From NCBI GenBank assembly GCA_048500275.1, contig JASNYI010000002.1, positions 144,784 through 208,783 on the forward strand: a stretch of 64,000 nucleotides of DNA. Reading direction: 5' to 3'. The DNA is from Thermoanaerobaculia bacterium. Lineage in GTDB: Bacteria; Acidobacteriota; Thermoanaerobaculia; UBA5066. Positions 35,159 to 39,644 of this stretch are shown here, piece by piece; positions within the stretch are counted from its first letter, which is position 1, and each line of letters starts with the position of its first letter. Made by a program: the position numbers and the translations under genes. The notes beneath the pieces are model-generated. The model was not told where the DNA came from, searched no databases, and was given only the letters and a program-made list of their open reading frames with translations.

Positions 35159-36619
35159 GTGACGGCCCACGGCGGGACGGTCCTCGTCGTCGACGACGAC
35201 CCCGTGAACCGGGCGATCCTCGTCGGGAGCCTCGAGGCCCAGGGGTACGCCGCCGGAGTCGCCTCCGACGGGCGCGAAGCGCTCCGGGAGCTTCGACTCG
35301 GCGGGTACGACGTCGTCCTCCTCGACCTCGTCATGCCGGTGATGGACGGTTTCGAGGTCCTCCGGACGATGAAGGAGGACGAGAGGCTGCGCTCGCTCCC
35401 CGTCATCGTCGTCTCGGCGCTCGAGGAGATGGAGAGCGTCGTCCGCTGTATCGAGATGGGGGCGGCCGACTTCCTCGCCAAGCCCTTCGACCCGGTCCTG
35501 CTCCGGGCGCGGCTGAAGTCGTCGCTCGCGGCCAAGCGGCTCGACGACGTCCTCCTCGCGCACGTGGCCGAGATCGAGGGGCTGGCCGAGCAGCTGAAGG
35601 TGAGGAACCGCTTCATCCAGGAGACGTTCGGCCGCTACCTCTCCGACGCCGTGGTGGCGGAGATCCTGGAGTCGCCGGACGGACTCAGGCTCGGCGGCGA
35701 GAAGCGGACCGTGACCATGCTCATGTCCGACCTCCGGGGCTTCTCGGCGATGGCCGAGCGGCTCGCGCCGGAGCAGGTCGTGAGGGTCATCAACAACTAC
35801 CTCGGGACGATGGCCGACGTCATCCTCGAGCACGACGGCACGATCGACGAGTTCATCGGCGACTCGGTCCTCGGGTTCTTCGGGGCTCCCGTGGCGCGGG
35901 CCGACGACCCGCGCCGGGCCGTCTCCTGCGCCCTCGCGATGCAGAAGGGGATGGAGCGCGTGAACCGCCGCAACCGCGAAGAGGGCCTGCCCGCCGTGGA
36001 GATGGGGATCGCCGTCCACACGGGCGAGGTCGTCGTCGGGAACATCGGCTCGGAGAAGCGGGCCAAGTACGGCGCTGTGGGGAGCCACGTGAACCTGACG
36101 GCGCGCATCGAGGGCTACACCTGCGGCGGGCAGGTCCTGATCTCCGAGCGGACCCTGCGCGAGGCGGGGGTGGGCCTCGTCACCGGGGGCTCGCTCTCCG
36201 TCCGGGCCAAGGGCTTCCCCGAGCCGGTCCGCGTGCACGACCTGCTGGGCCTCGAGGAGGCCCCCCACCTCCACCTCGGGCGCCGGGGCGAGACCCTCTG
36301 GCCCGTCGACCCGCCCCTCGGCGTCGTCTTCACCGTCCTCGAGGGGAAGCGCGTGGGCCGCGACGAGGAGCCGGCCGAGATCGTCGCCCTCTCGGCGCAC
36401 GGAGCCGTGCTCCGGACCACGATGACGATAGAGGCGCTCTCCAACCTGAAGCTGAGGGTGGCCAGCCCGGAGGGACTCCTCCCGGGCGACCTCTACGCGA
36501 AGGTGCTCCTGCCCGCGGAAGGCGCCGCCGGCGTGACCCGCCTCCGATTCACCTCCGTCCCCGCCGAGCTCGAGCCCCTCTTTTCGAGGTTGGGGTCAGG
36601 TCTTGATTTTCTATTGTAG
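35159..36619 (+). CDS. Response-regulated class III nucleotide cyclase (REC + Cya2-like catalytic domain + PilZ-like C-terminus); guanylyl-cyclase-type residues
   Basis: GGAGGAGG RBS, GTG 35159, intact REC. Catalytic motifs [40 protein letters not shown]. Confidence 0.9.
36592..36615 (-). repeat. 24-bp end motif, copy 1 (left end, inverted relative to copies 2 and 3)
   Basis: GGGGTCAGGTCTTGATTTTCTATT is the reverse complement of AATAGAAAATCAAGACCTGACCCC. Confidence 0.9.
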
Positions 36620-36628
36620 AATCCCGGC

Positions 36629-37576
36629 ATGGCACGACCGCTGAGGCTCGAGCACCCCGGGGCCCTCTGGCACGTCACCGCGCGCGGCAACGAGCGGGGC
36701 GACGTCTTTCGCGACGACGCCGACCGGCGCGAGTTCCTCACCGTCCTCGGGAGGACGGTGACGATCTACGGCTGGCGCCTTCACGCGTACGTCCTGATGG
36801 GAAACCACTACCACCTCCTCGTCGAGACGCCCGAGCCGACGCTCTCTCGCGGGATGCGCGACCTGAACGGCGTCACGACGCAGCGCTTCAACCGGCGCCA
36901 CGGCCGCGCCGGTCACCTCTTCGAGGGGCGCTTCAAGGCGATCCTCGTCGAGAGAGAAGCGCACCTGCTCGAGGTCCTGCGCTACGTCGTCCTGAACCCC
37001 GTGCGGATCGGGCTCGTACGCTCGCCGGCGGCCTGGCCCTGGTCGAGCTACAAGGCGACGGCGGGCCTCGTCGAGGCCCCCGAGTGGCTCGAGACGGAGT
37101 GGACGCTCGAGCAGTTCGGCCGGCGGCCGGCGGAGGCGCGGCGCCGGTTCGCCGCCTTCGTGGCCGACGGGAAGGGCGCGGCGGGGTACGAGCCGTGGAG
37201 CCAGCTCCGCGGGCAGGTGTTCCTCGGCTCCGAAGGGTTCGCGCGGGAGGTGAGCCGGAAGGCGGGCCGGAAGGCGGCGCCGAAGGAGGTCCCGCGGGCC
37301 CAGCGCGAACCGGTGACGCGGGCGCCGGAAGACGTCGCGGCGGCCTTCGCGGCGGCCCGGAGGTGTTCCGTCGAGGAGCTCGTGGCAGCACCGCGCAAGC
37401 GGCTGGTCGACCGGGCGCTGCTCGCCTGGGCGCTCCGCTGCCGAGCCCGGGCCCCGCTCGCCGCGATCGCCGGGATCCTCGACGTCGGCATCGCGCAGGC
37501 CTCGGTCCTCGTCCGCCGGGGCGAGACCCTCTCGGCGGAGGACCCGAAGCTCGCGGCGGTGGTGGAGAAGCTCTGA
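36629..37576 (+). CDS. HUH endonuclease / Y1 transposase (TnpA IS200/RAYT-related) with C-terminal HTH extension
   Basis: MARPLR...[13 protein letters not shown] motif [22 protein letters not shown], catalytic Tyr in [16 protein letters not shown]-terminal HTH-like segment. Confidence 0.92.
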
Positions 37577-38139
37577 TGACCCCGGACCGCCGGCCCCCGG
37601 CTGCCAGCAGTGGCCCGGTCGGCGAGCGCGGCCTCGTCGTCGTCCGGGGGGACATCACGCTCGAGGCGGTCGACGCCATCGTGAACGCCGCGAACCCCTC
37701 GCTCCTCGGGGGCGGGGGCGTCGACGGGGCGATCCACCGCGCCGCCGGGCCGGAGCTTCTCGAGGAGTGCCGCGGTCTCGGCGGATGCCCGCCGGGCGAG
37801 GCACGGATGACGAAGGGCTACAGCCTCCCGGCGCGGCACGTGATCCACACGGTCGGTCCGGTCTGGGAACGCGGCACGGCCGGGGAGGACGAGACCCTCG
37901 CGAGCTGCTACCGCGAGTCGCTCCGGCTCGCGGAGGAGGCGGGGCTCTCGAGCGTGGCCTTCCCGTCGATCTCGACCGGCATCTACGGATTCCCCGTCGA
38001 GCGGGCGGCCCGCGTCGCCGTCCGTGAGGTCCGCACCTTTCTCGCCGTGGCGAGGAGCGTCCACCTCGTGAAGATCGTGACGTTCAGCGCGCACGACCTC
38101 GAGGTCTACGGCGCCGCGGCCGCCCGGTCTTCGCTGTAA
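37576..38139 (+). CDS. Macrodomain O-acetyl-ADP-ribose deacetylase / ADP-ribosyl hydrolase (YmdB-like)
   Basis: [60 protein letters not shown] overlap with the transposase stop. Confidence 0.93.
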
Positions 38140-38161
38140 TGGAAAATCAAGACCTGACCCC
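38138..38161 (+). repeat. 24-bp end motif, copy 2
   Basis: AATGGAAAATCAAGACCTGACCCC, 23/24 identical to copies 1 and 3. The single difference creates the ATG at 38139. Confidence 0.9.
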
Positions 38162-38807
38162 GTTCCTCGTCGCCGGGGCGAGCGGGCTCGTGGGGCGGGC
38201 GCTCGTGGGGCGGATGCTCGCGGACGATGGGGGGCCGCCCGTCGTGGCCGTCGTGCGGCGGCCCCTGGGCTTTGCCGAGCCCCGGCTGTCCGAGGTCGTG
38301 GCCGACTTCGGGCGGCTGGATGCGGCTCGGGTGCCGCGCGCGCGCACGGCCTTCTGCGCGCTCGGGACGACGATGGCGAAGGCCGGGTCGGAGGCGGCGT
38401 TCCGGGCGGTCGACCTCGACGCCGTCGTCGCGTTCGCACGGCTCGCGCAACGCGCCGGGGCGGCCCGCTTCCTCCTCGTCAGCTCGCTCGGCGCCGACCC
38501 GCGCTCGCGCGTCTTCTACAGCCGGGTGAAGGGCGAGGCCGAGGAGGCGGTGAAGTCCGTCGGGTTCGAGGGCGTCGCGCTCTTCCGGCCGTCGCTGCTC
38601 CTCGGGGAGCGCGAGGAGAGCCGTCCGGCCGAGAGGGCCGCTGCGCTCGCGTCGGGCCTCTTCTCCTGGACGATGGCCGGGCCGCTCGCGCGCTGGAAGC
38701 CGGTCGAAGCGTCCGCGGTCGCCGCGGCGATGCTCGCGGTGTCCGGCGGGGTGCTCGAGGGCGTGCGCGTCGTCGAGAACGACGAGATCCACCGGCTCTC
38801 GGCGTAG
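38139..38807 (+). CDS. NAD(P)-binding oxidoreductase / epimerase (YraR/TIP30-like)
   Basis: Rossmann motif VAGASGLVG, AFCALGTTMAKAGS, VSSLGAD, YSRVKGEAE, RPSLLLG. TAATG overlap with the macrodomain stop. Confidence 0.9.
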   Translation: MENQDLTPFLVAGASGLVGRALVGRMLADDGGPPVVAVVRRPLGFAEPRLSEVVADFGRLDAARVPRARTAFCALGTTMAKAGSEAAFRAVDLDAVVAFARLAQRAGAARFLLVSSLGADPRSRVFYSRVKGEAEEAVKSVGFEGVALFRPSLLLGEREESRPAERAAALASGLFSWTMAGPLARWKPVEASAVAAAMLAVSGGVLEGVRVVENDEIHRLSA

Positions 38808-38823
38808 GCAGGGGCCGCTGTAG

Positions 38824-38847
38824 AATAGAAAATCAAGACCTGACCCC
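38824..38847 (+). repeat. 24-bp end motif, copy 3
   Basis: AATAGAAAATCAAGACCTGACCCC, a 24/24 inverted match to copy 1. Confidence 0.9.
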
Positions 38848-38882
38848 AGCCCTTGGCTAGAATGTGCGTCAGGGAGATACGT

Positions 38883-39644
38883 ATGTCGAGCGACACCCCG
38901 GGATACCCTCCGGCTCCGCCCGCGCCTCCTCTGCCGCCCCCGCCTCCGCCCGCGGGGGGCGGATGGGTCCCGCCGCCCTACGGCGGCACGCCGGCGGAGG
39001 GGCTCCCGTGGGAGCGCCGCGCCGAGCTGGGCTTCCTGAACGCCTTCGTCGAGACGATCAAGCTCTTCGTCACGAACCCGGCCGAGGCCTGGAGGGTGAC
39101 GAAGGAGAAGGGCGACTACGCCGAGCCGCTCATCTTCGCGATCCTCGTCTCGTGGATCGGCATCGCCGTCTCGAGCGTCTGGAACGGCCTCTTCGGCCAG
39201 GCCTGGACGGCGTTCCTCCCGGCCGAGATGAAGGAGCAGATGGGAGGGGCGTTCGCGACGAACACGGGGATGCTCCTGATCCAGGTCGGCCTCGCCCCGA
39301 TCTTCGTCCTGATCGGCCTCTTCGTCGGCGCGGCGATTTACCACGTGAGCTTCATGGTCGTCGGCGCCACCAAGGACTCGACCTCGGGCTTCGAGGGGAC
39401 GTTCCGGGCCGTCTCGTACGCTTCGGTCTCGAGCCTCGCGAACGTCATTCCGTTCGTCGGGGGCCTCGCCTCGGTCGTCTGGAACCTGATCCTCGTGGTG
39501 ATGGGGGTGGTCCGGCTCCACCGGACGACGCAGGGAAAGGCGATCGCGGGGGTCCTGATCCCGCTCCTCCTCTGCTGCGTCTGCATCGCGGTCGCCGTCG
39601 CCCTGGCCATCGGGGGCCTGGCCGCGGCCTTCGCGAACCGCTGA
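38883..39644 (+). CDS. Yip1 family membrane protein with Pro-rich N-terminus
   Basis: LPWE...AFVETIKLFVTNPAEAW, FEGTFRAVSY, NVIPFVGG; about 5 TM helices. Confidence 0.85.
   Translation: MSSDTPGYPPAPPAPPLPPPPPPAGGGWVPPPYGGTPAEGLPWERRAELGFLNAFVETIKLFVTNPAEAWRVTKEKGDYAEPLIFAILVSWIGIAVSSVWNGLFGQAWTAFLPAEMKEQMGGAFATNTGMLLIQVGLAPIFVLIGLFVGAAIYHVSFMVVGATKDSTSGFEGTFRAVSYASVSSLANVIPFVGGLASVVWNLILVVMGVVRLHRTTQGKAIAGVLIPLLLCCVCIAVAVALAIGGLAAAFANR

Follow-up and report, generated by a model that had tools for sequence, protein, structure and literature searches.

The analyzed window comprises 64,000 nucleotides (nt) of a Thermoanaerobaculia genome (GenBank assembly GCA_048500275.1, contig JASNYI010000002.1, positions 144,784 to 208,783; C2:144784-208783 of source genome G000), whose 5.6-Mb assembly consists of three contigs with a GC content of 71%. 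Within this window, a gene encoding a Y1-type HUH transposase is located between inverted copies of a 28-nt repeat. RAYT-like genes with non-palindromic terminal inverted repeats (TIRs) were described by Di Nocera, De Gregorio and Rocco in 2013 (PMC3733652) and named TIRYT, the corresponding loci being termed TIRtrons. Based on genome interpretation and comparison with related species, it is considered quite probable that the locus represents such a TIRtron, i.e., a vertically inherited, single-copy TIRYT gene with inverted copies of its cognate 28-nt repeat on both sides, whose product acts in trans on a non-autonomous family of 67 units, with the gene itself and the neighbouring macro-domain and NAD-binding genes being immobile.

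Genes and repeats at the locus

The locus starts with a response-regulator/adenylate-cyclase gene on the plus strand (35165..36619; longest open reading frame (ORF) from 34982) featuring the Pfam domains Response_reg and Guanylate_cyc. The left TIR, GGGGTCAGGTCTTGATTTTCTATTGTAG (36592..36619, plus strand), was delimited by motif search and information profile, and the final nine codons and the TAG stop of the cyclase gene (LGSGLDFLL*) come from this repeat. In the related genome G001, where no repeat is present at this position, the cyclase terminates with ...EPLLSP*. The GGGG end of the left TIR points away from the TIRYT gene, and on its 3' side a TAGAAT hexamer, sharing the last three bases of the unit, and a 6-nt spacer precede the TIRYT ATG. 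The TIRYT gene (36629..37576, plus strand) encodes 315 amino acids and was identified by means of Pfam Y1_Tnp and NCBIfam REP_Tyr_transpos. Its stop codon overlaps the start of a macro-domain gene (TGATG; 37576..38139, plus strand) of the O-acetyl-ADP-ribose deacetylase type (Pfam Macro, E = 3.5e-48; NCBIfam NF001664, 230.8 bits), which is a host neighbour whose status as cargo is not demonstrable. Further downstream on the plus strand follow an NAD(P)H-binding gene (38139..38807; NAD_binding_10/atypical short-chain dehydrogenase/reductase (SDR), Pfam PF13460, E = 6.5e-9) and, as the first gene past the repeats, a gene for a Yip1-domain membrane protein (38883..39644; Pfam Yip1, E = 6.8e-16), which is syntenic in relatives.

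Two additional units of the same family are read on the minus strand. Copy 2, GGGGTCAGGTCTTGATTTTCCATTACAG (38134..38161), was found by motif search at the junction of the macro and NAD-binding genes, and copy 3, GGGGTCAGGTCTTGATTTTCTATTCTAC (38820..38847), lies in the spacer between the NAD-binding and Yip1 genes, upstream of an older TAGAAT element. Both copies are in direct orientation to each other and bracket the NAD-binding gene. Copy 2 provides the TAA stop of the macro gene as well as the ATG and the initial eight codons (MENQDLTP) of the NAD-binding gene; the T-to-C exchange at unit position 21, its only mismatch, generates this ATG. The locus illustrates how repeats turn into gene parts by supplying stop and start codons. 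As a side observation, the TAGAAT hexamer recurs before start codons at the locus (window positions 36617-36631 and 38866-38885; L084 in G001; L063 in G003). It is located 6-9 nt before the starts of the TIRYT, macro (G001) and Yip1 (G003) genes, a spacing that looks like a leaderless-type promoter layout in this genus, and 11 nt before the Yip1 start in the window.

An initial annotation, deduced from the sequence alone, had described the repeats as AT-rich, non-hairpin, inverted 24-bp ends. The corresponding motif, GGGGTCAGGTCTTGATTTTCTATT, was located at all three positions, namely 36592-36615 (plus strand, no mismatch), 38138-38161 (minus strand, one mismatch) and 38824-38847 (minus strand, no mismatch). 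Elsewhere in the window it is absent at up to three mismatches; none of 100 shuffled sequences gave a match, and zero matches are expected by chance. The statement that the motif occurs nowhere else holds for the window but not for the genome, where its 20-nt core is present in 67 copies. Likewise, the 24-bp ends are real, but the conserved unit extends to 28 nt (GGGGTCAGGTCTTGATTTTCTATTMTRS). The flanks were confirmed as AT-rich inverted repeats without hairpin: 10 of the 24 bases are G or C as compared to 71% GC in the genome, and a single unit folds with -0.3 kcal/mol only (DNA fold, z = -0.27). The heptamer CGCTGTA reported in front of copies 2 and 3 is present (CGCTGTA-ATGGAAAATC and CGCTGTA-GAATAGAAAATC, respectively), but lies 3 nt out of the repeat register and is not conserved in other copies of the family.

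The TIRYT enzyme and its dispersed repeat family

The assignment of the ORF to the HUH/Y1 enzymes in the initial annotation was corroborated by domain databases, conserved residues and the fold. The protein matched Pfam Y1_Tnp with E = 8e-11 and NCBIfam REP_Tyr_transpos with 83.1 bits at a cut-off of 80. It contains the motifs NHYH (residues 59-62), YVVLNP with the catalytic Tyr119, GHLFEG (family consensus FQG) and WSSY (W138-S139-S-Y). In an alignment of 39 homologues originating from several phyla, H60-Y61-H62, Y119, N123 and P124 were invariant or conserved to at least 90%, and W138-S139 were invariant or nearly invariant. The AlphaFold (AF2) model of TIRYT (pLDDT 88, pTM 0.82) showed the best structural match to E. 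coli TnpA-REP with REP hairpin (4er8; E = 2.6e-6, TM score 0.69 on target), followed by the TnpA proteins of ISDra2 and IS608. Since Pfam returned no match for the C-terminal 125 amino acids alone, even at E = 10, assignment of this part required a search of the family profile against PDB sequences. Therein, residues 44-143 of the TIRYT family matched 4er8, and approximately residues 176-309 matched DnaA domain IV (1l8q, E = 1.6e-5; 3pvp, E = 6.8e-5; 1j1v, E = 1e-3). Profile and motif searches predict TIRYT to be composed of an HUH/Tyr core resembling TnpA-REP and a C-terminal helix-turn-helix (HTH) similar to DnaA domain IV.

The genome-wide count that the initial annotation had proposed as a check revealed 67 copies of the 20-nt core in the 5.6-Mb genome, compared to none for a reversed-pattern control. 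These units are scattered throughout the genome in gene-boundary DNA and constitute repeat family 1, which is composed of 49 singlets and nine head-to-head doublets. The two minus-strand copies interpreted earlier as nested right ends of the locus are ordinary members of this family at gene junctions. According to the information profile, conservation of the unit drops to zero past position 28, and immediately outside the GGGG end a weak preference for GAWY was noted. Doublets represent perfect palindromes of 60-63 nt that fold with -32 kcal/mol, compared to the value given above for the singlet, and several of them have identical inner sequences. A GTAG tetramer is restricted to the inner edge of certain units, where its register varies.

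Several features of family 1 concern adjacent genes. In at least 10 singlets, the stop codon of the neighbouring gene lies within the unit, being either TGA (unit positions 13-15, ...GVRS*) or TAG (positions 26-28), and three singlets supply a candidate start codon. Furthermore, the inner end of the units reads on the opposite strand as a -10-like hexamer (TATAAT, TAGAAT or CAGAAT). These characteristics would fit a host-domesticated regulon, in which the repeats serve as protein-binding sites, as gene-end/start modules or as outward -10 elements, whereas TIRYT functions mainly as an HTH regulator and the repeats are immobile. The orientation of the units relative to neighbouring genes is mixed, with approximately 22 units facing a 3' end and approximately 16 facing a 5' end, and a promoter/terminator consensus scan at the locus yielded no sigma-70-type promoter or terminator match; both results speak against such a regulon. 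For the same reasons, a function of the repeats as promoters or terminators was rejected. An Rfam search found no RNA-family match anywhere in the window. The inner TAGAAT/TATAAT was also considered as a target sequence and discarded, given that the older TAGAAT upstream of Yip1 persists downstream of the repeat (G000, G010 and G008); moreover, conservation reaches unit position 28 in all copies, which contradicts this idea.

The source genome harbours four TIRYT paralogues, of which P1 represents the single-copy gene in the window, the other three being 39-57% identical. P1 is flanked by family 1 (67 units), P2 (C1:1074202-1075149, minus strand; 57% identical) by family 2, GGGGTCAGGTCTACCTTCTACAC, with 82 units, and P3 (C3:1171302-1172213, minus strand; 39% identical) by family 3, GTGCCAGGCATGAAATCGTGTATT, with 44 units. 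P4 (C3:968766-969494) is a partial copy without flanking repeats. Thus, in the source genome three paralogous enzymes pair one-to-one with three repeat families. Families 2 and 3 mostly occur as hairpin doublets with arm-to-arm covariation, and families 1 and 2 have their first 12 nt in common. Seven family-2 doublets were found within approximately 15 kb of their cognate gene P2 (C1:1060953-1079596), suggesting preferential cis action or local hopping. Moreover, four mixed pairs consist of a family-2 and a family-1 unit arranged head-to-head across approximately 10-20 nt (C1:1222735-1222799, C2:605589-605653, C2:610874-610938 and C2:614214-614285). These pairs hint at insertion beside existing repeats or at cross-recognition.

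Synteny, inactivation and loss across the genus

In the genus, the cyclase gene is followed in one and the same orientation by TIRYT, macro, NAD-binding and Yip1 and, further on, by PGDH. The arrangement of the first five genes was traced in at least 13 species, TIRYT being syntenic in 12 species besides that of the window, and the TIRYT gene is therefore concluded not to move. Eight relatives (G004, G005, G006, G008, G009, G010, G014 and G016) possess an intact TIRYT gene whose product is 81-89% identical to that of the window and has retained the catalytic residues; their genomes contain 21-85 family-1 copies. The contig of G009 stops inside the TIRYT gene. In the seven remaining species, whose locus sequence spans the repeats, the left and both right-hand repeats are present at the same junctions. 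The left TIR is identical in six of these seven loci and differs by one base in G004, while copy 2 at the macro/NAD-binding junction reads ATGG or GTGG.

The initial annotation had interpreted the locus as a mobile unit of 1570 or 2256 bp that captures genes stepwise by using alternative right ends. In such a model, successively more distal right ends would have taken in the macro gene first and the NAD-binding gene second. One left and two right ends in inverted orientation indeed bracket genes, and a repeat located beyond a macro gene is unusual, since most TIRtrons have their right repeat within 100 nt of the TIRYT gene. Direct repeats surrounding 5.1 kb of ordinary genes in G010, where G000 has a single repeat (see below), would also be in line with this composite Y1 transposon. 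However, the 2256-bp unit as a whole exists only once in the source genome and resides at the same locus and in the same orientation in at least 13 species, and its supposed ends belong to a family present at many unrelated gene junctions. Moreover, the inner genes are present independently of the repeats and of the transposase: the macro and NAD-binding genes are in place without right-hand repeats in G013, G003 and G002, and without transposase or repeats in G001. Orthologous loci with the same genes but without the repeats, named by the initial annotation as evidence that would speak against capture, are thus found as far as the right-hand repeats are concerned. The NAD-binding gene was detected in every orthologous locus extending that far, with or without TIRs. 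The macro gene was lost by simple internal deletion in G005 (L066), G006 (L059) and G014 (L060), where its last approximately 20 nt remain. Stepwise capture is largely refuted by this synteny, and a composite transposon is regarded as very improbable. As a further observation, the macro deletion places copy 2 at a distance of 25-78 nt from the TIRYT stop, which corresponds to the usual TIRtron spacing.

An invertible segment, in which the Y1 enzyme would flip the 1.5-2.3 kb between the inverted repeats as a switch, had also been suggested, and a recombinase-like gene between inverted repeats is what such a switch would look like. In all orthologous loci, however, only one orientation relative to the cyclase and Yip1 genes was observed. 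Inversion would additionally remove the repeat-encoded stop from the cyclase gene and the repeat-encoded start from the NAD-binding gene, and HUH Y1 enzymes are single-strand nucleases that are not known as invertases. The probability of this explanation is judged to be very low, slightly lower even than that of the composite transposon.

In four further species the TIRYT gene is dead (L062 in G013, L067 in G002, L068 in G011 and L063/L069 in G003), the HUH motif, the tyrosine and the NP motif being lost; these orthologues are 61-66% identical to TIRYT of the window. In the full-length proteins of G002, G011 and G013, HYH is replaced by SYE or GFE, Tyr119 by H or W and N123 by A, while the reading frame remains open and the HTH is well conserved. 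Intact genes show ratios of nonsynonymous to synonymous substitution rates (dN/dS) of 0.14-0.24 (catalytic half 0.04-0.19), and dead genes of 0.35-0.44. In the dead-gene species the left repeat has decayed toward GC, and 27 unrelated or decayed bases occupy the place of copy 2. Right-hand repeats are absent in G002, G003 and G013, whose contigs reach the respective junctions, as well as in G001. In the latter genome, the cyclase gene is directly followed by the macro gene, with neither TIRYT nor a repeat at the locus. The genomes of G002, G003, G011, G013 and G001 contain only one to four family-1 copies, even when a relaxed pattern is applied.

With 100/99 support, a tree of six concatenated flanking host proteins divided the eight species with an intact gene from the five in which it is dead or deleted; G001 was placed among the dead-gene species. 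Since all dead and deleted species are located on one side of this branch, a single inactivation suffices to account for them. A tree of the cyclase alone, which put G013 among the intact-gene species, was superseded by the concatenation. The genus represents a clean natural comparison at a locus common to the species compared, in which species with intact enzyme have 21-85 near-perfect repeats, whereas sister species with a catalytically dead but HTH-bearing protein have almost none. As the dead proteins keep the HTH while their genomes hold almost no repeats, catalysis, and not binding alone, seems to be needed for repeat conservation; the pattern argues that catalysis maintains the family.

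This finding also bears on the regulon discussed above. Dead orthologues with an open frame, a conserved HTH and dN/dS of approximately 0.4, together with the conservation of the repeat core between species (99.5% at orthologous sites, see below), would suit a binding protein with its sites. Near-disappearance of the family in species that lost only the catalytic residues argues against it, as does the concerted species-wide change of the inner 8 nt, and in view of the mixed orientation and the blank promoter scan a domesticated regulon is considered unlikely. The dead TIRYT proteins themselves may be exapted DNA-binding proteins, or their frame may be kept only through translational coupling with the macro gene.

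Two more distant members of the genus, G012 and G015, do not possess the cyclase-Yip1 locus and carry 28 and 42 family-1 copies, respectively. Family 1 therefore likely predates the split between the intact and dead lineages.

Repeat turnover and proposed mode of action

In order to evaluate the constraint acting on the repeats, 30 repeat sites of G010 were mapped onto the G000 genome, 20 of which have an orthologous G000 repeat. In the 20-nt core, 2 of 380 positions are different among 19 orthologous pairs, as compared to 11-21% in the flanks; at a divergence of 15%, a core count this low would arise with a probability of approximately 3e-24. Within the inner 8 nt, 25% of the positions differ, and they do so in a species-specific manner, G010 mostly featuring TACTATAG and G000 featuring TATTCTGx or TATTATAG. 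In orthologous doublets, changes in one arm are mirrored in the other. That the inner 8 nt change in concert throughout a species points to turnover of the family. Alignments of G010-occupied and G000-empty sites gave no footprints, the intergenic DNA being too diverged (approximately 80-88% coding identity) to define precise boundaries or target duplications.

For the TIRtron, a mode of action may be proposed on the model of TnpA-REP and IS608. Single-stranded DNA would be cleaved and religated by the HUH/Tyr site at the conserved GGGG end of the unit, and the HTH would read the conserved head GGGGTCAGGTCT. The doublets would represent the mobile substrate, since they offer the hairpin that Y1 enzymes recognise, whereas the singlets would be half-remnants or half-sites or, alternatively, substrates themselves. 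In this manner, the enzyme would act in trans on the dispersed family 1. The 28-nt unit and the 60-nt hairpin are concrete candidate substrates.

Several points weigh against this interpretation. Family-1 singlets outnumber doublets 49 to 9, which is awkward for a hairpin-only substrate; instability of long perfect palindromes would explain the excess. The link between enzyme and repeats rests on one evolutionary inactivation event and not on replicated events. Moreover, no family-1-flanked TIRYT orthologue was found in G012 or G015 despite their 28-42 copies; the gene may be unassembled, the repeats may be orphaned, or another TIRYT or paralogue may serve them. The assignment of the locus to TnpA-REP subclass 2.1, equivalent to Bertels RAYT Group 1, was made by motif signature only. 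For genes of subclass 2.1, no REP-like repeats in their vicinity were reported (PMC6006769), and according to Bertels and Rainey (PMC3116915; bioRxiv 10.1101/2021.07.10.451892) only RAYT Groups 2 and 3 are accompanied by REPINs.

A further proposal, which is possible but rather doubtful, goes beyond the TIRtron: the 28-nt units might be live single-strand recombination sites that are continually rewritten in place by TIRYT and occasionally joined, with deletion, insertion or translocation of the intervening DNA. Rewriting in place would explain why the core is 99.5% identical at orthologous sites, why the inner 8 nt change in concert within a species and why both arms of orthologous doublets change symmetrically. 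Occasional joining of units would explain why, at 14 of 28 distinct G010 repeat loci (L165-L194), homology to G000 breaks or ends within approximately 50 nt of the repeat, including the two cases described below. Family-1 repeats seem to be enriched at synteny breakpoints; the control, with approximately 9 breaks in approximately 60 other intergenic regions of the same 3-kb loci, is rough because repeats and breakpoints both favour intergenic DNA. If true, Group-1 RAYTs would be chromosome-remodelling enzymes with a maintained set of sites, and the REPIN-RAYT idea would extend to the largest RAYT group, so far considered repeat-free.

Two examples from G010 may be given. At G010:C1:595600-600723 (L168/L169/L195), two direct family-1 repeats bracket a block of 5.1 kb encoding an alpha-amylase-family protein, an alpha/beta hydrolase and an ORF of 585 amino acids, whereas G000:C3:831714 has one repeat and no block. 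Either the block was deleted in G000 between direct repeats, or it was inserted at the repeat in G010. At L194, the flanks of two G000 repeats located 546 kb from each other (C3:433158 and C3:979120) are joined.

Relation to known systems

The term TIRYT is used only in PMC3733652 and PMC6006769. In the former study, a common GGGGWSAS head, TIR families consisting of single, dimeric or grouped units, and a sharply defined Acidobacteria group were described. Quentin et al. 2018 (PMC6006769) equated TIRYT with TnpA-REP subclass 2.1 and Bertels Group 1 (RAYT Group 1, PMC5581495), characterized by the motifs NH[YF]H, FQ/WE and Y[IV]xLNP, by an SS motif located past the Tyr helix and by a C-terminal extension with an HTH similar to Bac_DnaA_C, HTH_23 or HTH_28. 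The initial annotation had mentioned short inverted flanks for some HTH-extended Y1 subclasses, which correctly describes the TIRYT/TIRtron class and subclass 2.1, respectively, of the two publications. The locus agrees with published TIRtrons in its repeat head GGGGTCAG, which fits GGGGWSAS (GGGG[AT][CG]A[CG]), its inverted, non-hairpin flanks, the NH[YF]H, Y[IV]xLNP and SS motifs and a C-terminal HTH predicted to be Bac_DnaA_C-like. It also shares with them a low copy number of a non-mobile gene and repeats occurring as singles, dimers and groups, and its acidobacterial host fits the class as well. In contrast to most TIRtrons, in which the right repeat lies less than 100 nt from the gene, the nearest right repeat is located approximately 560 nt away, past the translationally coupled macro gene. 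Furthermore, the family is larger and more clearly tied to its enzyme than the two papers report, in which TIRYTs are termed 'less productive', with 'no obvious correlation' and 'no' REP-like repeats for subclass 2.1, and three cognate enzyme/repeat pairs reside in one genome.

Similarity to the REPIN-RAYT systems of Groups 2 and 3 comprises a Y1 gene that is present once, is inherited vertically without jumping and has its own dispersed repeat on its flanks, as well as hairpin doublets, one family per enzyme paralogue, a master sequence conserved across species and a repeat population that appears to shrink upon enzyme loss. Differences consist in the non-palindromic unit without a GTAG-tagged REP hairpin and in the enzyme, which belongs to another RAYT group and has an added HTH domain. 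With E. coli TnpA-REP (4er8) and the IS200/IS605 TnpA proteins (IS608, ISDra2), TIRYT shares the HUH fold and the catalytic residues, but these proteins do not possess its additional C-terminal region of 170 residues. In IS200/IS605 elements, which are present in multiple copies, subterminal hairpins and often a tnpB gene are found, whereas the gene described here is single-copy and fixed, without hairpin ends and with a macro and an SDR-type gene as neighbours instead of tnpB. Among RAYT-like genes, TIRYTs (RAYT Group 1, subclass 2.1) form the group with the largest size and the widest distribution, for which the literature describes no, or only a loose, association with dispersed repeats. 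The locus does not represent a new kind of element, but the comparative data are a useful addition to this known but little-studied class.

The arrangement of gene and repeats is also found at distant homologous loci, 47 of 50 of which have an upstream repeat with a GGGGTCA head and an inverted downstream partner, usually 20-100 nt past the gene end. The head GGGGTCAGGTCT is common across phyla and to families 1 and 2, while the tail is family-specific, which suggests a common recognition or cleavage site combined with a specificity region. In G025, a member of the same order but of another family, a TIRYT with 50% identity (L072; G025:C1:432469-433501) is tightly flanked by GGGGTCAGGTCT[CG]GATTTTT repeats. 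Approximately 18 copies of this variant were counted in the G025 genome, so that conservation of the head and of part of the tail extends outside the genus.

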